From contig JAUVNS010000004.1 of the NCBI GenBank assembly GCA_030599585.1, forward strand, positions 160,001 through 224,000: a stretch of 64,000 bases of DNA. The letters are read 5' to 3'. The notes under the pieces are model-generated. The model did no database searches, was not told the DNA's origin, and saw only the letters and a program-made list of their open reading frames with translations. How positions within the stretch are numbered: the stretch's first letter is position 1; every line of letters starts with the position of its first letter. The DNA comes from Promethearchaeota archaeon (GTDB lineage Archaea; Asgardarchaeota; Lokiarchaeia; Sigyniarchaeales; SOKP01). Below, piece by piece: positions 30,051 through 46,087 of this stretch. A program made the translations under genes and the position numbers.

Positions 30051-33000
30051 TTAAATAATAATCTCAGTGAAGTATAAAACAAGAACTAATAGTACCCAAG
30101 TAATCGCGAGGATTATTAACAATATTGTAGTATAAAACCTCCATTTTATTGAAATCTTCTGTTTCTTTTCAATTCTGTAAATATATACTGCAAGTATTGC
30201 TCCTAATATAATTATTGAGGACAATATCAAAATTATTCCAAAAATGATTGAGGTTATGTACGGTAATATCAAAGCAAATACGAATACCGTAAAACTTATC
30301 CAAAGCGTGATGAAGCGCTGCATTCTTTGTTTAAATATTTGATCTGCATCATCTGTTTTCTTAACAGGGAGGAAGGAAATTAAAATTCCTGCAGTAGCGC
30401 CACCTAAGAGGGAAGCGTGATCCCATCTTAACAAATCTAAAACAATGTTGGAGAAAAGCACTCCTACTATTATCCCTGCAAACAAGCACAAAATAATTGC
30501 TATCACTTTAAAATGCGTTTTTAAGAAATTGAGCATGGAATAATAAATGCTAAGAATGTAGTTTTTAACCTTAATAAGGGCAAATCGTAAATTATCTATA
30601 ATATTATCTAAGAATCTTTTCAATTCTTCCAACATAAAAATAAACAAGTATAGCATCATCCCTATTAACATCCAAGAGAAACTCCATCCATTTGAAGTTA
30701 GATTAAGAGTAATTAAGCTTAATAGCAAGAACATTATTACGGAATATAAGAAGGAAAGGGATTTGCTGCGTTTAAAAGGTTTGAATAGAACTAAATTTAT
30801 TATCATAAAAATGAACAGAGATATACACAAGTTTAAAACTAGATTCGGAAGCATAATAAATTCTAAGGTAATAAAAATATCTAACGATAGAAGAGTTTCA
30901 ATAAAGATAAAACTGGAAATCTTGAGTATATTCCTTGTTTTATCACTTACAATCTTAATATATTTGTCAACAAAGGTTAAAAATAGTAAGATAATAAACG
31001 ATAATATCGATAAATTAAACGAAATATAATAATCTGGATTAATATAATATAGAGGCCACGTGATTAAATCTAAGTAGACGATTAGAATAAGACCTTTATT
31101 AATTTTTGATATGTTGGAACTGATAAAATCCCATTCTGATATTAACCGAGATAAGTAGGCGATTTGTATTATGAATAGTAGTATAGTAATAGGGATAAGG
31201 TGTGGGAAAAACAATGAAATCCAATCAATGTAGAATAAGATCGAGAAACCAATCATAACGATCCACGAAGTGACGATAAAACCTTTCGAGGTTTTCTTTA
31301 AAAACTTTAACAAAAACTTATCTAACAAACCAATCAAATGTGTTAGAATACTTAAAATGAAGATAGTTATATGAAATTCTATACTAAATGCAGTCAACAA
31401 ATTATAGATGCTGATTATTAGAAAAACGTATAAACCTATTCCTAAGAAGTTCTGTCTATTAGTTTTCCATTTTTCAAATATTTCTAGCTTTTCAGGATTA
31501 AATTTACTCCTAATTTTGAAATACGAGATGTTAGTGTAAAATTGCAATGCTAAAAATAGCAATAATATATAGAAAAGCGAAGTTATTGAAAAACCATATA
31601 AATAAATTAAAATCAGAGAAAGAACCCAAGAGCTATTAAAGAAACTTAAACAGTGGACAATATCCATATACCCTGCTTTTAAACGCTTTATAGCGTAAAT
31701 TTCTAGTATGCTGATTATGAATAGAATAATCTGAGAAAATAGCAGACTTTCGAAAAATCCAAAATATAATCCAAAGAGTCCGAGAAACACGATTGAAGTC
31801 TCTAAGTAAACGACAAATACTAAGCCTGAATAAAATTTCTTTGTCTTTATAACCCATTCCTCACCTTTTATAACACCTTTCGATAGGTGTAATGTGTAAG
31901 CGGTTAGTATAGTTTCAGACAGAATAACTAAAGAAATTCTTAAAAAGTCGAGTGTTGCGAATGTTGTAAAGAAAGCGAGCCAGAAAATACCAAAAAACAT
32001 TTGGAACGCTATGAATGTAGAGAATAGAATAATATTCTTTGATTTTTTTTCTATTGTGCGATTTAAAAAGCCATTTAATAGAAACATGAGTAATGAAAAG
32101 ACAGAAAGAAAGAAACTAAATGAAGGAATTCCAATTAGTAATGGGTTGTAAGCTAGTAGAAAGTCAGTCAATAACAGAGAAAGGTAAAAACTAATCACAA
32201 GAAAAATAATATTCAGTAAAATTGCTTGTAATTGATTTTTAATTTCCTTTATTCTATTAGCATCGTATTTAGTTATTACTTCGATATAGTAAGATAAGTA
32301 ATGTAATGTATAGAACTGTAATATCAAGAATATAACTAAATTTAAAACAAATAATGTGGCATCATTTCCTGTAAGTTGGGCAAAGTAAATTAATCCACCA
32401 ATCGTTATAACAAGAAATGCTATGATATTTAACAAATAAGTGATCTTTTCTATAGTTCTCTTTAAAACATGGATGTCTAATAAAATGGAGAGGAAAAATA
32501 TGAAAACGGATAACAATATAGCTCCATATAAGTATAAGCTAATATCTATTAACTCCTGGATCAATCCAAAGCTCAACAAACCAAGTGCAAAATAGGATAC
32601 TAATGACAGAATTGAATCAAATTTCGTCATACCATAATCTTTTTCAGGCTGTTGTTCTTCGATTTTCTTCATAAATAAGAATCTTGCTACCGAAAAGTAA
32701 GCAGAATAAATCAAAAGTGAAAGTAGAACTATAAAATAGAGCGAATGAAATAATTCTATCAATAGTATAAACTGTAAAGTTAATAATGTTAATGCTAAAG
32801 GAGAAATATACCATAGAATAAAACGGTATTCATATAATGCTGATCTAAGAATAATCAAATTGACAGTTATGAATATCGCAGACACTAAAAAGATAGATCC
32901 AGGGAGGAAAATATAAACCAAGAACGATAAGGTAAGTGATATTCCAATCGATAAAATTGATAGTGGAAATATTTTTTTAAGAGGTAATATCATTCGAAAT

Positions 33001-36000
33001 TTATTAAATACAAGAGTGGAACCGCCAAAAACCGTAATTGCTAAAGATAAAGCGATGAACTCGATATTAGGAATCAATATGAATGTGTTGTAGGTAAAAA
33101 AGGAGAAATTTACGACTAATATTGATGAGATTATAATGTTAAAAAAAGTCCTGCTGAGCTTAAGGAGTCTTGAAGAAAATAGACTGAAAGCGAGTATTAT
33201 AAAAGAGAGGTTAATAGATATAAAGAAATTTAGAATTATTGAATTAATGATCAAGAAAATTGTTAAAAAGATACCTGTCAGAGAAAGAAAATAGGAACTT
33301 ACAAGTAAAATGTTTTTTAAATTTTTTAAATTGGGGAAAAATGATAAAATGACGAAAAAGAATCCCAATACAATTAAATTGATTGATAAGTTAATTTCCA
33401 AGGGTAACAAGATTACTTGGAATAATATAACGAGGAAGCTTACATTTATAAAAATGTAAAATAGCCATAATAGAGTAATGATTTTCCACATTTTCATTCT
33501 ATAAAACACCGGCATTAGAAGAGATACTGCGAAAACAAAAAACACTATATTAGTAATTACTAGATTTTCAGTAAAAACATTTTGACTAAACCAGTATAAG
33601 AAGAACAAGCTAAAACTCCAAACTATTAGTAGAATCCTGGAGAAATGTTTTTTTATCCATGTGTACCAAAAGGGTAGAGAAAGCAAAACACAAATTGTGA
33701 AAGATATTATAAATGAACCACTAATTTGAATCCCAAAGAAATTTAATGCGTTCGTATAAATATTAACATCGGTAAAACTCTCGTTGATGATATAAAAATT
33801 TACAAAGGGAACTATAATCCATAACCTCCACCCCGTTTTCCATATTACCCAAGAGAATTTCCAGTAGTAAAAGCCTACTGATAAGTAGAAAAGAAGGACG
33901 CCAATATTGATGGTTATAATAAACAGGAAAGGGTCCCATATAGGTAGATTAAAAAAGACATTCAAGAAAAAATACATAAAAGTTGGAATAGAAAGAATAT
34001 AGGATGAAAAAGCGATATAAAAAGAAAGGCGCCTGAAATTTTCTGGCGCTTTATTATAAGTCCATACATAACTAATACTGGTAACGCTTAAAGTTAGTGT
34101 AAATGTCAGTATTGGATTAAATTCTATAAAAAATGGATTATTAAACAGAATATTATAAGACAGGAAACTAATGAGGTTAAATACCATAAGCAAAACACCA
34201 GGTCGGATGAACCACTTGTAAATATCATTTTTTTGCTTGTAGTAGAAATTCCCTGTTAATAATAAAAATAGGAATAGAGAGAAAGTAATGATATATATTA
34301 AAGGAATTATGGTATTGTAGAGTAGTAAAAGAAAGGTTATAATCGATATTAAAGTATATAAAGTGAATTTTTCGATTACATTTACATTCCGTATGTTTAA
34401 CACAATAGAAAAGAATAAGACAATCATTAACGAAAGACTGAAATAAAAAAGATAAAAAGCGAAGTCGAGTAGATCGAATGAAGGAATAAACATATAAAAA
34501 TTCAGTGTGGTAATCAATTTTACTAAAATTAACAAGGTAAGCGAGAAGTAGCTAATAATTCGAAATATAAAATTGCGATTCCGATTGGAAATGAAGAAAT
34601 AAATCATAATAATAAAAAATACATAAGCAAAATATTCGAAAACACCCGGAAATATAGAAAAGAAAGTAAATAGCAGTAGTGATGGACCTAGCAATATTCT
34701 TATTAGTTTGAATTCAGCCACATTCTCAATTCTATCATTGTATTTAACCAGATAGTAATTGATTAACGAATAAATACCACAGAATAAAATTAAAAGTCGT
34801 AGTGGTTGATTTGTGCTGTAAAATGGAAACATTTGACTGGAGTTCCAATATAATTCACTGAATATAATAATTAAAGTAAAATAGAACGTGTAATAGATGA
34901 GTCTTTTGTAAAGTGTTAGAGAATCATCAGAGATAAAAAAGTTATTTCTCAGATAATAAATAGTAATAGGACTGAGGAAGGTTAGAATTAGTAAAGGTAA
35001 ACCAATCCTTTGTATAAGAGATAACTGGGCAGGAAATATCAAAATATAGAAACACAATAGAAATTTAATTATTAACCATGCGGATATATCAAAAACCCAT
35101 CTGAGTCTCGAAAATTCAATTTCGAATAAGTTACGACTGATTGTTGATACTATTAGGTAAGTTAACAGAAAGATTCCAACATTTGTAGTTAATGTTAATA
35201 GTAGGGACTCTTGAAGCTGAAGAAGTGAATAAATGATATTAAATGGAACCAGAAAAATAGTTAGCGAAGCTATCATAAATTCGATGAAAAAATAAGATAT
35301 GTTTTTAGTATATTCGTATATTTTGTAGATTCTGTAATAATCATATTTAGTAAGATCGTTTTCAAATATCCTCTGCTTGAGATTTTCAAGCGGAATTAAG
35401 ATAACCAGATTTAAAATTAAAAATAATAACGAAGAACAACTGATATTGAATCCAATATTAATAGTGAAAGAGTTTAAAACCACAAAAATCTTCGTAGATA
35501 TAACAAGAGATAAAACAACCCAAGTGATAATCTGGCAAGTTTTAATAGAAACGAAATAGGATTCTTTAAGTTTAGATTTATCAAAAAGAGATTCTAGAAA
35601 AACTAAAAATCCAAAAACTAAAGCAATAACCGAACTATTGATTATATAATAATCTACAGCTATACCTAATCTAATAAAATCTAATCCTATTACATAAGGA
35701 AGCGAAGTAATTAATCCCGATATGACTAAACTGTCTATTGTTAACAATTTCTGCACAAAACTGGTGAAAATATTCTTATTTAAGGAATGGAGTAGAGGTA
35801 ATAACAGTGTTATACTTAAGATCAGCAAAGGAATAATATATTTGTAAACCGAAGTAGGTATAAACAAATATAGATAAAATGAGATGAGGATACTAGTGAA
35901 AAACAAACTTACTATATTAAACCCTGTCGAAATTTTTTCTGAAAATAGAATTCTCTTCTTGGTAAAAAAATTAATAATCAAGCTAATAAGAACGATGGAT

Positions 36001-38207
36001 ATATATGCTGAAAAAATTAGGTCCAAATGAAGTTGTTGATTAAAGAATGCGAACATTATGAAGAAAACTTCTAACATTATTAAATAACTAATGTAATTTT
36101 CAATAACAATAATTTTTTCGTGAGAAATTATATCTATTTTATCTCCCAATTTCAAAATGTAGAAACACGCAATAGATATGTAAAGTATATTAAGCACGAT
36201 TAACGAATTTAAGATTGTTAAAAATAAATCAGCAATTAAATAGAAGTTTAATATAAAGACAGACAGAACTATGATGCTGGAGCAAAGAAAATGATAGATT
36301 AGGAAGAATTTTTTATTTATTACATTTTTTTTGTGGAGATAATAAATGGGAATATATGAGAGGACGCTAACTAAAATAAGAGGTATAAAAAATCCGAAGA
36401 ACGAACCCCAAGTGTAAAACGCACTATAATATCCCACCAAAAATAAACCTAAATATAACGTAAATGAATTTAATATCAAGGTTAGGAGCTTAGGAAAGAG
36501 TTTATGTTCTTTTGAATCCGAATACACAATTAGACTCATTACCGTAACAGATAAAAACAAGGATATAAGTAAGTCTAATTCCAAATAAATCAGGAAAAAT
36601 GTAATAAGTATGGCAAAAACTTCGAATACAATGGGATAAGATAGGATGTGTAAAAGAGATTTAGATCGTGATTCTTTGAGCATTCTAATTTTCTTCCCAT
36701 ATGAAATTAGGATTATCAAACAAATGGATATAAACAGTAAGTTAAGGATCGTACCAATAATTAGATGTGCGCTGAAGTATATTACAATTATATAAAAATT
36801 CAAAACGAAAAACAAAAACATGAGCAACCATGAGGAACCATAAGTGTAAATTGCGATGATTTTAGGTTTTAATAATTTTTCACTATATAAATAATAAATT
36901 GGAGCAAAAATCAAGAAGCAAAATACAATCGGTGTGATTAAATAAACAATGAAATCACTTATATTTGCGTTTAAGAAGTAAAACCCCGTAATCACTATAC
37001 TAATAATCAGGATAAGTAATGTCCAAGTTATTATTACTTTTCTAGGAATAAATTTTACATTCGGAGGAAAAAGATTAAAAATGATGCCAATAACGCAACA
37101 AGAAAGGAATAAAGCAAGAAATCCGTCCAAAATAAATAGAATTCTGAATACCGCATAAAATAATAAGAATACTTCAATTAAAAGAGCAAAACTATCAACT
37201 CTAATTATAAAATTGAAAGTAGAATCTTTAACTTTTTTTAGATACTGTCCAAATTTAAGGTTTGCTAAACTAAAAACTGACAAATAAGCCAGATCTAAAA
37301 GCAGAATCACAAAATTATTCCAAAAAATTATGAATATTGTAAAAAAAATCGAGAGTAGTAAAAACCAAAAAGCATAATAGCTATAATTCAAGCTGATTTC
37401 TCGAGAGAATATGTGAATACTATAGTTGAGAAGCACGAATAGTAGGAAAATTATTGGAACTATAATTGCAGATAAAATTAGTTCTCCTTGAAATACCTCA
37501 AGAATTCCAGATGCTAGATTTTTAATATTAACTAATGCAAACCAAGTTATTTCTAATAGTAAAAAGACGATCACGATACAATAGTTAAAAAACTTCCAAG
37601 GTTTATCGTATAACCGAATCCGAGCAAACGAAAAATAAAACGACAATAATGTTATTGCTAAGACGATAAAAGTGTGAATTAATACATTGGAGATAAAACG
37701 TACACTTGGATCTATAATGAACTGTAGATATACAAATTCGATTACAGGGAAGAAAAGATATAAAATCATTGTAAAACTCGCAACAACAAGAAGAGTTTGA
37801 ATAATTAGTACCGTTTTTTCTTGAAAGTACTTAAGCTTCTCAAAAACTTGAAATATTATATATGTAGATAGTGAGAGTAAAAGAAATTGAATTAAAAGAA
37901 ACTGAACATTAAAAAACGTTATGCTCGGAAATGGCAAGATCCAAAAGATTACGATGATTGCCACCCCTAAGCTATTAATTAGATATATAAATCTGCCGTA
38001 AAGAATAGTGATAAAGTTCGATTTTTCTTCGTAATAGGTAAGAATAGAAATTATTGGTAATGTTATAATACCGATTAAAGAAATATCATTTAGCAATGAA
38101 ATTGAGAGGAATAGAAGAATTAAACTGACTGAGACAATAAAGTTTAGCTTTACATAGGTTTGAATATCACCAACATCAACTTCTTCAGCATTGTTAGGAC
38201 TCGTCAA
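30051..38207 (-). CDS. Giant polytopic membrane protein of unknown function
   Basis: 2718-aa uninterrupted ORF, hydrophobic helices nearly end to end; AAGGAGGT SD before TTG start. Confidence 0.85.
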   Translation of the reverse strand: MTSPNNAEEVDVGDIQTYVKLNFIVSVSLILLFLSISLLNDISLIGIITLPIISILTYYEEKSNFITILYGRFIYLINSLGVAIIVIFWILPFPSITFFNVQFLLIQFLLLSLSTYIIFQVFEKLKYFQEKTVLIIQTLLVVASFTMILYLFFPVIEFVYLQFIIDPSVRFISNVLIHTFIVLAITLLSFYFSFARIRLYDKPWKFFNYCIVIVFLLLEITWFALVNIKNLASGILEVFQGELILSAIIVPIIFLLFVLLNYSIHIFSREISLNYSYYAFWFLLLSIFFTIFIIFWNNFVILLLDLAYLSVFSLANLKFGQYLKKVKDSTFNFIIRVDSFALLIEVFLLFYAVFRILFILDGFLALFLSCCVIGIIFNLFPPNVKFIPRKVIITWTLLILIISIVITGFYFLNANISDFIVYLITPIVFCFLIFAPIYYLYSEKLLKPKIIAIYTYGSSWLLMFLFFVLNFYIIVIYFSAHLIIGTILNLLFISICLIILISYGKKIRMLKESRSKSLLHILSYPIVFEVFAILITFFLIYLELDLLISLFLSVTVMSLIVYSDSKEHKLFPKLLTLILNSFTLYLGLFLVGYYSAFYTWGSFFGFFIPLILVSVLSYIPIYYLHKKNVINKKFFLIYHFLCSSIIVLSVFILNFYLIADLFLTILNSLIVLNILYISIACFYILKLGDKIDIISHEKIIVIENYISYLIMLEVFFIMFAFFNQQLHLDLIFSAYISIVLISLIINFFTKKRILFSEKISTGFNIVSLFFTSILISFYLYLFIPTSVYKYIIPLLILSITLLLPLLHSLNKNIFTSFVQKLLTIDSLVISGLITSLPYVIGLDFIRLGIAVDYYIINSSVIALVFGFLVFLESLFDKSKLKESYFVSIKTCQIITWVVLSLVISTKIFVVLNSFTINIGFNISCSSLLFLILNLVILIPLENLKQRIFENDLTKYDYYRIYKIYEYTKNISYFFIEFMIASLTIFLVPFNIIYSLLQLQESLLLTLTTNVGIFLLTYLIVSTISRNLFEIEFSRLRWVFDISAWLIIKFLLCFYILIFPAQLSLIQRIGLPLLILTFLSPITIYYLRNNFFISDDSLTLYKRLIYYTFYFTLIIIFSELYWNSSQMFPFYSTNQPLRLLILFCGIYSLINYYLVKYNDRIENVAEFKLIRILLGPSLLLFTFFSIFPGVFEYFAYVFFIIMIYFFISNRNRNFIFRIISYFSLTLLILVKLITTLNFYMFIPSFDLLDFAFYLFYFSLSLMIVLFFSIVLNIRNVNVIEKFTLYTLISIITFLLLLYNTIIPLIYIITFSLFLFLLLTGNFYYKQKNDIYKWFIRPGVLLMVFNLISFLSYNILFNNPFFIEFNPILTFTLTLSVTSISYVWTYNKAPENFRRLSFYIAFSSYILSIPTFMYFFLNVFFNLPIWDPFLFIITINIGVLLFYLSVGFYYWKFSWVIWKTGWRLWIIVPFVNFYIINESFTDVNIYTNALNFFGIQISGSFIISFTICVLLSLPFWYTWIKKHFSRILLIVWSFSLFFLYWFSQNVFTENLVITNIVFFVFAVSLLMPVFYRMKMWKIITLLWLFYIFINVSFLVILFQVILLPLEINLSINLIVLGFFFVILSFFPNLKNLKNILLVSSYFLSLTGIFLTIFLIINSIILNFFISINLSFIILAFSLFSSRLLKLSRTFFNIIISSILVVNFSFFTYNTFILIPNIEFIALSLAITVFGGSTLVFNKFRMILPLKKIFPLSILSIGISLTLSFLVYIFLPGSIFLVSAIFITVNLIILRSALYEYRFILWYISPLALTLLTLQFILLIELFHSLYFIVLLSLLIYSAYFSVARFLFMKKIEEQQPEKDYGMTKFDSILSLVSYFALGLLSFGLIQELIDISLYLYGAILLSVFIFFLSILLDIHVLKRTIEKITYLLNIIAFLVITIGGLIYFAQLTGNDATLFVLNLVIFLILQFYTLHYLSYYIEVITKYDANRIKEIKNQLQAILLNIIFLVISFYLSLLLTDFLLAYNPLLIGIPSFSFFLSVFSLLMFLLNGFLNRTIEKKSKNIILFSTFIAFQMFFGIFWLAFFTTFATLDFLRISLVILSETILTAYTLHLSKGVIKGEEWVIKTKKFYSGLVFVVYLETSIVFLGLFGLYFGFFESLLFSQIILFIISILEIYAIKRLKAGYMDIVHCLSFFNSSWVLSLILIYLYGFSITSLFYILLLFLALQFYTNISYFKIRSKFNPEKLEIFEKWKTNRQNFLGIGLYVFLIISIYNLLTAFSIEFHITIFILSILTHLIGLLDKFLLKFLKKTSKGFIVTSWIVMIGFSILFYIDWISLFFPHLIPITILLFIIQIAYLSRLISEWDFISSNISKINKGLILIVYLDLITWPLYYINPDYYISFNLSILSFIILLFLTFVDKYIKIVSDKTRNILKISSFIFIETLLSLDIFITLEFIMLPNLVLNLCISLFIFMIINLVLFKPFKRSKSLSFLYSVIMFLLLSLITLNLTSNGWSFSWMLIGMMLYLFIFMLEELKRFLDNIIDNLRFALIKVKNYILSIYYSMLNFLKTHFKVIAIILCLFAGIIVGVLFSNIVLDLLRWDHASLLGGATAGILISFLPVKKTDDADQIFKQRMQRFITLWISFTVFVFALILPYITSIIFGIILILSSIIILGAILAVYIYRIEKKQKISIKWRFYTTILLIILAITWVLLVLVLYFTEIII

Positions 38208-40636: not shown

Positions 40637-40816
40637 GTATTATTTTAATAAAATAAGTTTAGAAGTGATATAATATCTTCTGTAAGGTTTAATGAGTTTA
40701 AAGAGTTATTGATTACTATTATTGACGCTATTGTCAAAGATTTTCCAAATAAGTAAACAAATGGGAAATAATACCCGCAAAATTTATTAGGGTACACTTA
40801 TTCTATTCTTATAATA

Positions 40817-40897
40817 ATGAATTTTTCGCGGCATAATACTGATTCATGGGTTGGCTGTAATAAGAAGGCCATTATTCCCTTAGTAACAGTATTATAA
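40817..40897 (+). CDS. Putative leader peptide, 26 aa (MNFSRHNTDSWVGCNKKAIIPLVTVL)
   Basis: Follows TTTATTA box at about 40783; stop abuts hairpin; same layout as 41448-41540. Confidence 0.45.
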   Translation: MNFSRHNTDSWVGCNKKAIIPLVTVL

Positions 40898-40952
40898 AGA
40901 GAATAAATCCTTTTTTCTCTCTTTTTCTTTTAATTCTTTGGATTTATTCTCT
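40898..40952 (+). promoter_or_regulatory. 13-bp perfect hairpin with 29-nt pyrimidine loop (attenuator/terminator-like)
   Basis: AGAGAATAAATCC / GGATTTATTCTCT. Confidence 0.65.
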
Positions 40953-41045
40953 GCGTATGAAGTCTATTAATTTTTAAGAAAAAGTGGGATAAGGGCTTAA
41001 TTCTTACCGTAAATTCTAAAAAAAAGAATGGAGGTGAAAAAAGAA

Positions 41046-41222
41046 TTGGCAGGCAAAATAGGTCCTGAATCAATATTGGAGTATTATCAAGATTGGAATT
41101 CAGATCTGGCCCCTATCATGATGTCATTTGATCTCTCAGATGCCTATCCGGGTCAAATTGAAAGCGAGGACCAAGAAAAAATGGCTTATCTGAGAAAAAA
41201 ATATCAAAAAATATCAAAATAA
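41046..41222 (+). CDS. Small protein, 58 aa (track ORF 41028 includes the SD)
   Basis: GGAGGTG at 41030-41036 then TTG; motif DLSDAYPGQIESE. Confidence 0.65.
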   Translation: MAGKIGPESILEYYQDWNSDLAPIMMSFDLSDAYPGQIESEDQEKMAYLRKKYQKISK

Positions 41223-41447
41223 GCTCTAATTTTTTTCTATTTCTTTTTAACTATTATATAACGGTTGTTAAGCTTGAAATTTCGAAGATCCTAGATTTCT
41301 ACAATTTTCAAGTTAATCAGTTTGATTTATACTCAGTTTTAAATAAGGCGAAAAACCATAGTATAAAATTCATTTATTTGTATGATTTATTTATAATTGG
41401 GATAAAAAGTGAAACATTTAAATAGCCTCATCTTTTTATTTATTCTT

Positions 41448-41540
41448 ATGATCTTAAATAATGCTACTAAATTTTCATTTGTAAAAGCTATAAGCCTTTT
41501 ATTAGGTGTGGCAGTAGTAGTATTATTATTATTATTATAA
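41448..41540 (+). CDS. Putative leader/hydrophobic peptide, 30 aa (MILNNATKFSFVKAISLLLGVAVVVLLLLL)
   Basis: TTTAAATA box about 25 nt upstream; ends (GTA)3(TTA)5TAA next to hairpin. Confidence 0.5.
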   Translation: MILNNATKFSFVKAISLLLGVAVVVLLLLL

Positions 41541-41542
41541 AT

Positions 41543-41593
41543 GAGAGCCGATCCCTTTCGATCTTCTTTTTAATTTTTCTTGGATTTGCTCTC
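41543..41593 (+). promoter_or_regulatory. Second copy of hairpin with pyrimidine loop
   Basis: GAGAGCCGATCC / GGATTTGCTCTC; compensatory changes relative to the first copy. Confidence 0.6.
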
Positions 41594-41680
41594 TCATCAA
41601 AGAATTTAAATATAATTAAATCGAGATCATAACGGATTCCGGCACCTCAGGAAAAGTAAATAAAAATTGGAGGTGAAAAA

Positions 41681-41860
41681 ATGGAAAAAGAAGTTCTTGA
41701 CGAAATTGAAAGTCAAATTGCCTTAGAAAACAGTATAATTCAAATAAAGGGAGAAAACAAACACGCAAATAAAAATATCTTTTGGAAATACCTAGATTAT
41801 TCAAACTGGGTTCCAGGAGAAATTGAAATTGAAGAAGAAATTAAGAAAGACTATATTTGA
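41681..41860 (+). CDS. Small protein, 59 aa (not in ORF track)
   Basis: GGAGGTG SD 5 nt before ATG; MEKEVLDEIE...YLDYSNWVPGEIEIEEEIKKDYI*. Confidence 0.7.
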   Translation: MEKEVLDEIESQIALENSIIQIKGENKHANKNIFWKYLDYSNWVPGEIEIEEEIKKDYI

Positions 41861-41904
41861 TAGAAAAGAAAATCTATTAAGAAATAGTTTAATATTTAAG
41901 TTTC

Positions 41905-43080
41905 CTAATTGAGAATCTTTTCTATTCTTTCTAAGGCTTCTTTTATTTTATCAATTGGTTGAGTTAAAGCAAATCTAACAAATCCCTCTCCATATGTGCC
42001 AAAACCCGTGCCAGGAGTCAGAACTACTCCTTCGTTAATTAATTTTTTAATGAATTCCATGCTATTTGTTTCTCCTTCCGGAATGTGGGTCCAGACATAT
42101 AAGGTCGCTTTAGGCTTGTCTGTGTTCCAACCGATATCATTAAGGCCCTTCACCAAAACATCACGCCTTTTTTCATATATTTTCATGTTATTTCTTACGA
42201 TATTAGGTTTTTCTCCTGATTTGTACTCATTTAAACCTTTTACTACGGCTTTTTGGATAAAAATTGGGCATCCTGAATCAGTATGAGACTTAACCTTCCT
42301 TAGTCCACTAATAATATCCTTATCTCCCACTGCCCAACCGCACCTAAATCCCGTCATACAGAACATCTTTGACGAGCTATTAATTTCTATGTGATTCTGA
42401 TCTATCTGTAAAAGCGATGGAGCTATATAATCCTCGTAAGTGAATTCTGAATACGGATTGTCATAGACGATGACGAAATTGTAATCTTCTGCGTTATCTG
42501 CGGCTTCTTTTAGAAATTTTTTCGATGCAATTGCCCCAGTTGGATTATTTGGGTAATTTAAATACATTAACTTGGCTTTTTTTAAAATTTCGCTCTCAAT
42601 AACTTCAAAATCGGGTAAAAAATCATTTTCTCTAAGCAAAGGAATCGTATGTATTTTTCCATCACATAATTTAGTGGCACCATTTTCATATACGGGATAA
42701 CCGGGGTTGGGACATAATACAATATCTCCGGGATTGACAAATACTCTCGCGATATTAGCTACCCCCTCTTTTCCTCCTATTAAATTGGTTACTTCATCGT
42801 TAGCATCAAGTTTTAAATTAAACCTGACATCATACCACTTTTGTACAGCTTCTCTGAAATCTTGTTCTCCTTTACTTGAGGGATAATTTTGGTTTTCGGA
42901 GATTTTTACTTGATTAATTAGTTCATTAATAATCAGATCTGGAGTCGTTAAATCCGGGTCACCAATCCCTAATGGGATGATGTTTATTCCTTCCTTTTTC
43001 TTATCGTTGACCAATTGCTCAATTTCTGCGAAAATATATCCTGGTAGCTTATTAATCCTATTTGCATATGTAATTTTAAT
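41905..43080 (-). CDS. dapL: LL-diaminopimelate aminotransferase-like class I/II aminotransferase (extended to ATT start)
   Basis: LGIGDPD, GGKEG, YLNYPNNPTG, DNPYSE, SSSKMFCMTGFRCG; conserved N-terminus ANRINKLPGYIFAEI lies upstream of the track start 43014. Confidence 0.75.
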   Translation of the reverse strand: MKITYANRINKLPGYIFAEIEQLVNDKKKEGINIIPLGIGDPDLTTPDLIINELINQVKISENQNYPSSKGEQDFREAVQKWYDVRFNLKLDANDEVTNLIGGKEGVANIARVFVNPGDIVLCPNPGYPVYENGATKLCDGKIHTIPLLRENDFLPDFEVIESEILKKAKLMYLNYPNNPTGAIASKKFLKEAADNAEDYNFVIVYDNPYSEFTYEDYIAPSLLQIDQNHIEINSSSKMFCMTGFRCGWAVGDKDIISGLRKVKSHTDSGCPIFIQKAVVKGLNEYKSGEKPNIVRNNMKIYEKRRDVLVKGLNDIGWNTDKPKATLYVWTHIPEGETNSMEFIKKLINEGVVLTPGTGFGTYGEGFVRFALTQPIDKIKEALERIEKILN

Positions 43081-43322
43081 TTAAAACACCACGTAAATTT
43101 CAGTAAATAAAAAATTGTACTAACTCATTCACAAATAGATAAAAATGTTATGAAATAGATTAAGCAATTAAGCAAGAACAAATCAACTATTATTCAAAAA
43201 AGTCAAAATTTTACCCCTAGAATTTAGCTTAGTTTATATTCTATAACCGATTATTTAAAATCTAATTTTATTTTTATATATATTTATTGAATGATTATTT
43301 GAAAAAAGGTGTAGTATATTAA

Positions 43323-43865: not shown

Positions 43866-44975
43866 ATGGATAAAGAACAAAATAAAGTATGGTATAAAGC
43901 AGCAAGAACTATAGTCAAAGCAGGACAACTTCCTATGGTAGTTAACGATAATCTTATTGAGCTATTGAAATTGATTATGACTGATGAACAAGCTGAATTT
44001 ATAACAGTATTCAAAAAACCATCACTAAGTATTGATCAGTTAAAAGATAAGACTAATTTAGATGAGGAAGCTTTAACCCCGATATTAAACGATTTAATGA
44101 ACAAAGGAGTTATCGTTGGTGTTCCTAGTAGGAGGTCGGGTGTCATGGTGTACAGACTTCTCGGACCTTTTCCTGGTATTTTTGAGTTCCAGTTCATGAG
44201 AGGAGAAACGGGAGAAAAACAAAAGAAACTTGCCCAAATTTTCGACAATCTTTTTAAAGAATTAAGCAAAGGAGCTCAAAAAAATTACGATACCCTCGTA
44301 GAACAATATAAAAAGTTCCCTCCAATAACTAGAGTTGTCCCCGTTGAAGAGGAAATTGAAGATGTTCCCGTTGATAAGATATTACCACATGAAGAAGTTT
44401 CTAGAATAGTAGACAAGTATGATGATATCGCTTTGGTTCATTGTTACTGTAGACATGAAAAGGATTTGCTTGGACACTCATGTACCGTGACAGATGAGCG
44501 ATTAAATTGTTTTCTTTTAGGGAAGAGCGCTCAGTTTGCTATAGAACATAAATTCGGAAACAAAATCTCTAAAAATGATGCGAAAGCAATAATCAACAAA
44601 GCGTCTGATGAAGGTCTGGTTCATAAAGCATTTCATATTCACCTAAAACCAGAATTGGATGAAGAGGCTATCTGCAACTGCTGTAAATGTTGCTGTGGAA
44701 TTTTTTCGCTTTTTTGGAGGGGTATTTCGCCTTACCATTGCTATACTAGCTATTTAGCGGAAGTAGAAGAAGATTTATGCGTAGGATGTGGAACATGTGT
44801 AGAGAAGTGCCCAATGGAAGCAATTGATTTAGTTGAAGATATTGCCGTAATAGATAATAGTAGATGTATTGGTTGCGGTGTATGTGTTCATCATTGCCCT
44901 GAAGATGCAATGAAATTAGACCGAACAGGGAATAGGGAAGTTTTTGTTCCACCACCTAGGATAAAAACAACATAA
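43866..44975 (+). CDS. N-terminal wHTH plus 4Fe-4S dicluster protein
   Basis: CYCR, ICNCCKCCC, two CxxCxxCxxxCP motifs. Confidence 0.85.
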   Translation: MDKEQNKVWYKAARTIVKAGQLPMVVNDNLIELLKLIMTDEQAEFITVFKKPSLSIDQLKDKTNLDEEALTPILNDLMNKGVIVGVPSRRSGVMVYRLLGPFPGIFEFQFMRGETGEKQKKLAQIFDNLFKELSKGAQKNYDTLVEQYKKFPPITRVVPVEEEIEDVPVDKILPHEEVSRIVDKYDDIALVHCYCRHEKDLLGHSCTVTDERLNCFLLGKSAQFAIEHKFGNKISKNDAKAIINKASDEGLVHKAFHIHLKPELDEEAICNCCKCCCGIFSLFWRGISPYHCYTSYLAEVEEDLCVGCGTCVEKCPMEAIDLVEDIAVIDNSRCIGCGVCVHHCPEDAMKLDRTGNREVFVPPPRIKTT

Positions 44976-44992
44976 TCAAGGAGGAATCTGTT

Positions 44993-46087
44993 TTGTCTGA
45001 AAAATTATGGTATCAACTTGCTAGAAATATTTTAAAGGCAGGAGGTCCACCTGTACCCATTAATGAGTCCCTTATTGAATTGTTAAAGCTATTGATAAAC
45101 GATGAGCAATTAAGATTTCTTTTAAAGTTCAGAAAATCTCTTAATTGGGAACAAATTGAATCAAAATTTGATTTAGATGAAGCTTCATTAAATAAAATGT
45201 TAAATGAATTAATGCACATCGGAATGATAACGGCTATACCTAGTAGGACTACTGGTATAATGGTTTATCGCTTAGTAGCTTTTCTACCGGGATTATTGGA
45301 ATTTACTCTCATGCGAGGCCAAACAGGAGTAAAACAAAAGAAACTTGCGAAACTATGGGAACAGTTGTTTAAAGATGAAGCAGAAATAACTCGAAAAAAC
45401 CATGATATTGTAATGAACGCATTTAAAAACGCGCCACCTATCGATAGGGTGATCCCCATTGAACAACAAATCGAACCACATGAAGAATTAACTTTACCTG
45501 AAGAAGAAGTAAGAAAAATCATAGAAAAATACGATACTATTGGCGTTTCACATTGCTATTGCAGGCACTTTAAAGATTTACTAAACGATTCATGTAAAAT
45601 TAATGCACCACGGCAGAATTGTTTAAGTTTTGGCAGAACTGCTAAATTTGCAATCGATCAAAGTTTTGCTAAGAAAATCTCTAAAAAAGAGGCTTTGAAG
45701 ATATTAAAGGAAGCAGAAGATTTCGGGCTAATTCATAAAACCTTTCATGTAAAAGGAGATCCATATTTGGAAGAGCTAGCAATCTGCAACTGTTGTCGCT
45801 GCTGTTGTCAAAATCTTCAAGCCTTTTATAACGGCGCTTCTCCTACACATACTTATACTTCTTATATTGCACATGTTAGTGAAGTCGATTGCGTTGGATG
45901 CAGTACGTGTTTAGAATTATGTCCAATGGATGCAATTGATTTAGAAGATGCTTCCGCTATCGTAAACGAAGAAAGATGTATTGGTTGTGGAGTTTGCGCA
46001 AATAATTGTCCTGAAGATGCTATAGAACTGCAACGGACAGGGCTTAGGAAGGTTTTTATTCCCCCTCCCAAAGTTTCAACTGCTTAA
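44993..46087 (+). CDS. wHTH plus 4Fe-4S dicluster protein, tandem paralogue
   Basis: CYCR, ICNCCRCCC, two ferredoxin motifs; GGAGG SD. Confidence 0.85.
   Translation: MSEKLWYQLARNILKAGGPPVPINESLIELLKLLINDEQLRFLLKFRKSLNWEQIESKFDLDEASLNKMLNELMHIGMITAIPSRTTGIMVYRLVAFLPGLLEFTLMRGQTGVKQKKLAKLWEQLFKDEAEITRKNHDIVMNAFKNAPPIDRVIPIEQQIEPHEELTLPEEEVRKIIEKYDTIGVSHCYCRHFKDLLNDSCKINAPRQNCLSFGRTAKFAIDQSFAKKISKKEALKILKEAEDFGLIHKTFHVKGDPYLEELAICNCCRCCCQNLQAFYNGASPTHTYTSYIAHVSEVDCVGCSTCLELCPMDAIDLEDASAIVNEERCIGCGVCANNCPEDAIELQRTGLRKVFIPPPKVSTA

Follow-up and report, generated by a model that had tools for sequence, protein, structure and literature searches.

Predicted leader-peptide RNA switches precede small-protein genes and the leucyl-tRNA synthetase gene in an Asgard archaeon

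Bacteria use short leader peptides to sense amino acid supply. In the enterobacterial branched-chain attenuators ilvL (ilvGMEDA), ivbL (ilvBN) and leuL, and in pheM before pheST, a ribosome translating a short uORF decides between competing RNA hairpins, and the devices sit before synthesis and tRNA-synthetase genes. A related attenuator precedes ilvBNC in C. glutamicum (PMC11857589), and in mycobacteria leaderless poly-Cys sORFs act as amino acid sensors for the downstream gene (10.1101/834739). In the Bacillus subtilis at operon, the rtpLP leader gauges a charged tRNA in front of the small anti-TRAP protein of about 55 aa, with its stop beside the Shine-Dalgarno (SD) sequence and a T-box present. 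In archaea, transcription ends at U-rich RNA downstream of stop codons through FttA/aCPSF1 and U-tract termination (PMC11616081, PMC8116511, PMC13675443), which has been described for gene ends and as a hypothesis for coupling control. Our literature searches, which did not cover most subscription papers, found no archaeal leader-peptide attenuator and no description of conditional FttA use in a 5' leader.

Here we describe two candidate leaders of this general type in a 64,000-nt stretch of a Promethearchaeota archaeon genome (hereafter the window; contig JAUVNS010000004.1, positions 160,001 to 224,000, of assembly GCA_030599585.1). A first-pass annotation had noted two tandem units, each with a TATA-like box, a near-leaderless uORF, a hairpin at its stop, and an SD followed by a small ORF. 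This observation is correct, and every element it named is present. The units lie on the plus strand between a divergent family 4 glycosidase (GH4) gene and a convergent LL-diaminopimelate aminotransferase-like (DapL) gene, and are thus self-contained.

Unit 1 begins with a BRE and TATA box (40775-40789; TTTATTA at 40783), followed by TATTCTTAT at 40804 and a 26-aa uORF (40817-40897) in which six of the last eight codons are Ile, Leu or Val. The hairpin, hereafter P2 (40898-40952), has arms at 40899 and 40940 and a 29-nt U/C-rich loop. A conserved SD (GGAGGTG, 41030-41036) precedes ORF1 (41046-41222), which encodes 58 aa from a likely TTG start. Unit 2 has the same layout: a TATA box (TTTAAATA, 41417-41424) conserved in 10 orthologues, TATTCTTAT at 41441, a 30-aa uORF (41448-41540) ending in four Val and five Leu codons, a P2 hairpin (41543-41593) with arms at 41543 and 41582 and a 27-nt loop, an SD (GGAGGTG, 41669-41675), and the 59-aa ORF2 (41681-41860). 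A TGGG(A/G) element about 20 nt upstream of the TATA box (40761-40767 in unit 1) is present at 34/34 unit 1 and 8/10 unit 2 promoters, and may be a transcription-factor site. Both P2 hairpins fold better than dinucleotide shuffles (z -5.97 and -2.80), and a strict pattern for this hairpin finds only these two sites in the 4.85 Mb genome.

Several details of the first-pass annotation required correction. The SD lies about 75 nt after the hairpin. The annotation held that both hairpin arms had changed together, but between the two hairpins two pairs are compensatory, one becomes G-U and one is broken. The KAI tripeptide and TATTCTTAT vary freely in orthologues and are incidental, and a fixed Trp or Cys codon is likewise not conserved. 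The unit 1 stop is TGA in 33 of 34 genomes; this genome alone has TAA (window 40896), which keeps the stop but loses one terminal pair of P1, a helix described below. Unit 2 has TAG in 8 of 10. Finally, the units are not sisters in RNA or protein trees, although support is weak, so the duplication holds only as old paralogy and not as a recent tandem event.

We next asked whether the uORF frame and stop position are conserved, a test set out beforehand. Unit 1 is syntenic in 35 of 41 other genomes of the genus, and unit 2 occurs in 10 of the genomes examined; relatives are labelled Promethearchaeota or Lokiarchaeota. All 104 leaders that we collected have an ATG, at 31 or 34 nt from the TATA box in 79 cases, and all are open for 20-32 codons, whereas the other two frames are open in 0 and 6. 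Within the genus, the unit 1 uORF is open in 34/34 copies (72-90 nt) and changes length only by triplets, while the spacer after it varies 13/8/13 mod 3; the unit 2 uORF is open in 10/10. The leader peptides themselves are under weak constraint (pN/pS 0.72 and 1.05), and it is the stop that is fixed, at -4 to +1 of P2 in 60 leaders and +9/+10, inside its 5' arm, in 40 leaders that changed frame and end in Lys-Arg-Glu. Stops are TAA in 48, TGA in 41 and TAG in 15 leaders and the frames after them close quickly, which rejects UGA read-through or SECIS-like recoding. We also rejected a second ORF starting at the ATGA overlap and running across the loop, as its frame is not conserved and its start is lost in this genome.

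P2 proved to be one part of a larger fold, of which the first-pass annotation had seen only one of two competing states. The start of the uORF pairs with its last codons to form P1, a candidate pause hairpin that the annotation missed (40833-40841 with 40887-40895 in unit 1; 41457-41527 in unit 2, with a -14.5 kcal/mol duplex and a uORF fold z of -2.63). The U/C-rich loop of P2 pairs with a purine tract about 25-50 nt further on, and the 5' arm of P2 has a second partner behind that tract. Together these form P3, which excludes P2 and whose 3' arm lies at 40972-41005 in unit 1 and 41613-41649 in unit 2. The unit 2 arm includes a segment that can pair with the leader start codon (41623-41630) and an anti-SD hexamer (41643-41648).

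Both folds covary. On a sequence-only alignment of 49 leaders, 15 of 23 P2 and loop-to-tract pairs show double changes (7 of 13 in P2, where 94.4% of cells are paired, and 8 of 10 in P3), a level reached in none of 500 shuffles, and slid registers score lower. In an alignment-free test across 25 representatives, segments paired better with partners from their own genome than from others for P1, P2, loop:tract and the outer P3 stem (0/5000 permutations), and also for a 5'-end helix, although relatedness inflates such tests. Anti-SD pairing showed no such advantage (p 0.26) and was barely above shuffled partners, and neither the P2 loop as an anti-SD nor downstream pairing of the P1 3' arm gave a covariation signal. 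Two unit 2 orthologues (loci L003 and L007) lack 12 nt of the P2 3' arm, while P3 and the anti-SD remain.

To examine how a ribosome could act on these folds, we modelled folding with an assumed ribosome footprint length. P2 formed in 25 of 25 nascent RNAs, whether free or with a ribosome stalled five codons before the stop, but in only 3 of 25 with the ribosome at the stop. In full-length RNA, P3 won in 19-23 of 25. Both window units behave this way, with P2 nearly complete once the ribosome is two or more codons short of the stop. In these models P2 is therefore a transient, ribosome-dependent structure, which fits a decision made during transcription.

We wondered what such a leader might sense. 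The small-protein loci alone left Val/Leu sensing in doubt, because the Val/Leu codons are also the 3' arm of P1, so that structure partly dictates them, and because the 40 frame-changed leaders have only 38% branched-chain codons in the tail, mainly an Ile pair at the same position. We searched for the fold elsewhere. A generic scan, a nucleotide profile and two covariance models find exactly two more copies in this genome (G000, with contigs numbered C): one before leucyl-tRNA synthetase (LeuRS) with a Leu-rich leader (G000:C21:128870, minus strand; locus L200) and one before an FrhB-family gene with an Ile-rich leader (G000:C20:394821, minus strand; L201). In relatives the fold precedes archaeal- and bacterial-type LeuRS (20 leaders), IlvE (2), an acyl-CoA dehydrogenase (3), FrhB-like genes (3) and 45-aa paralogues of the small proteins (10), and is thus not specific to small proteins. 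The RNA model found nothing in 24 genomes of other families in the class, which does not show absence.

Leader codons track the downstream gene. The last eight codons are 67% Leu before LeuRS, 51-54% Val before small genes and the acyl-CoA dehydrogenase, and 42% Ile before FrhB-like genes, against proteome values of 10, 5.5 and 10%; in unit 2 orthologues they are 97% Leu/Val. Taking one value per genus and gene class, the Leu share is higher in 5 LeuRS lineages than in 17 others (0.65 versus 0.30, exact p 0.0002), although the lineages are related and the p-value is overstated. Control codons match the downstream pathway at the LeuRS and IlvE loci. Moreover, a separate near-leaderless 33-codon uORF ending in a long Leu run, followed by a different purine/pyrimidine hairpin, precedes leuA-leuC in this genome (G000:C24:120101 onward; L244:202-303).

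Combining these observations, we propose that each unit is a ribosome-mediated attenuator that gauges charged tRNA for Leu, Val and Ile. Comparison supports a near-leaderless uORF under frame constraint with its stop fixed at P2, two competing covarying folds (P2, which is local and forms first, and P3, which is longer and wins in full-length RNA), and leader codons that track the downstream gene. Transcription of the leaders, translation of the uORF, any response to amino acid supply, the direction of control and the output are inferred. In this view, the ribosome loads at the 5' end and follows RNA polymerase, with P1 acting as a pause hairpin. With plenty of amino acid it would reach the stop, cover the 5' arm of P2 and leave the U-rich loop and 3' arm single-stranded, so that FttA/aCPSF1 or U-tract termination ends the transcript before the SD. 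When tRNAs are uncharged, it would stall two or more codons earlier, P2 would fold and shield the tract, and the small gene would be transcribed, the direction expected for LeuRS. The small proteins would then be starvation-induced. The genome encodes FttA, which prefers U-rich nascent RNA, cuts about 22 nt from the 3' end and is proposed to compete with the ribosome (PMC11616081, PMC8116511). We hold a translated uORF with a two-state RNA to be very likely and branched-chain sensing to be likely, a transcriptional output is somewhat favoured over a translational one, and we have moderate confidence in the model as a whole. The first-pass interpretation, that a ribosome on a Val/Leu/Ile-rich leader controls hairpin formation or U-tract exposure, is thus supported in part: its core agrees with frame conservation, covariation, folding models and leader codons at other loci, but rests on sequence alone. 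Two targets fit the model poorly and are unexplained, as acyl-CoA dehydrogenase is catabolic, making induction on starvation counter-intuitive, and FrhB-like has no clear link. The loss of 12 nt of the P2 3' arm in two unit 2 orthologues also counts against the model.

The proposed device differs from each bacterial precedent. Compared with the enterobacterial attenuators, with which it shares a short uORF with tandem Leu/Val/Ile codons, competing hairpins and a stop next to the switch, it has an archaeal TATA promoter and a near-leaderless uORF, its U-tract sits in a hairpin loop, and its targets in the window are small proteins of no known family. A search for a short G+C stem followed by a U-run returned 0 sites, P2 has no U-run after it in this genome, and Rfam gave no significant match in the window region or six related loci. 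Compared with the mycobacterial sORFs, it would sense branched-chain residues instead of Cys, and the RNA is unrelated. Compared with rtpLP, the SD lies 115-143 nt from the stop and no T-box matched in Rfam.

The strongest alternative, though we consider it unlikely, retains the ribosome sensor but makes the output translational: P3 would hide an anti-SD segment and free the SD of the small gene, while P2 or a ribosome at the stop would release the anti-SD. This is credible for unit 2, where a perfect anti-SD hexamer is conserved in 10/10 (-10.7 kcal/mol) and modelled SD freedom rises from 0.14 with the ribosome at the stop to 0.5-0.6 when it is stalled on Val codons. The corresponding family means are 0.31 and 0.49, and the leader 5' end can also pair beside the SD. 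However, unit 1 SD freedom stays at 0.44-0.45 wherever the ribosome is, and the anti-SD shows no own-genome advantage family-wide. A less likely alternative is that the uORF only couples transcription to translation or reports general translation rate, or that the fold binds a protein such as the small protein itself, with the Val/Leu codons a by-product of AT-rich triplet repeats in P1. The weak constraint on leader peptides, the 40 frame switches and the many other residues in unit 1 leaders agree with this, but Leu runs specifically precede two unrelated LeuRS types and leuA, and IlvE also carries the fold. A type I toxin-antitoxin-like or dual-function RNA controlled by an antisense RNA, suggested by long-range 5'-3' pairing and a transient hairpin that recall hok-type mRNAs, a hydrophobic leader 2 and the weak start codons of ORF1, is very unlikely given that the fold precedes housekeeping LeuRS, the small proteins are hydrophilic, mostly single-copy and syntenic across a family, the leaders are not conserved as peptides, and no PDB or Rfam match or shared Pfam family was found. 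Regulation of DapL or GH4 was rejected because these genes are convergent and divergent, and the leader stays with the small gene when DapL is not next to it.

A broader possibility, which we regard as somewhat less likely than not, is a family-wide archaeal attenuation regulon in which ribosome position on a near-leaderless uORF gates FttA/aCPSF1 termination through a new two-state RNA, without a bacterial terminator, and switches on a previously unknown family of small starvation-response proteins together with LeuRS. Competition between the ribosome and FttA for nascent RNA is still a hypothesis (PMC11616081, PMC8116511). These roughly 250-nt leaders are natural, portable test elements for that hypothesis and for coupled transcription and translation in the archaeal lineage closest to eukaryotes, and would tie an unknown small-protein family to branched-chain amino acid status.

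ORF1 and ORF2 are paralogues sharing a D-x-S-x3-PG-x-IE-x-E motif (hhalign E 0.00037), and both are under purifying selection (pN/pS 0.36 and 0.47). A profile of the small proteins hits 100 of 134 genomes of one Promethearchaeia family and only one weak, probably chance, site among 265 other genomes of the phylum. Searches of Pfam, PDB sequences, Foldseek, VIA-align (best Z 3.2) and the ESM Atlas found no match, and the structure model has a pTM of 0.36; the regulatory context alone suggests a response to branched-chain amino acid shortage. ORF2 is 68 aa in 7 of 10 orthologues and nine residues shorter here, stopping at two adjacent stop codons (window 41858-41884) where most orthologues have two Trp codons and nine more residues; two other genomes are also short. 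ORF1 orthologues mostly lack an ATG at the expected place (likely starts TTG 29, CTG 27, ACG 15, ATG 14). Near-cognate starts are not specific to ORF1, since the conserved N-terminus of the neighbouring DapL-like gene lies upstream of its first standard start codon (window 43014-43085, minus strand) and that gene probably starts at ATT.

The third, 45-aa type shares the same short motif, and in this genome one copy (G000:C50:18812-18960) lies behind an SD with no ATG/TTG/GTG at the expected place and no matching leader fold. Two metagenome loci encode fused proteins of 114 and 107 aa that join two small-protein types behind one Val/Leu leader (L142:1438-1782 and L143:4001-4324), and in another genome (G074, locus L092) a winged-helix-like ORF of about 110 aa lies between two leader-plus-small-gene units. 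Elsewhere in the window, the minus strand carries an ORF for a predicted 2718-aa, very hydrophobic multi-pass membrane protein (30051-38207) and two tandem, similar-looking 4Fe-4S proteins of 369 and 364 aa (43866-46087).
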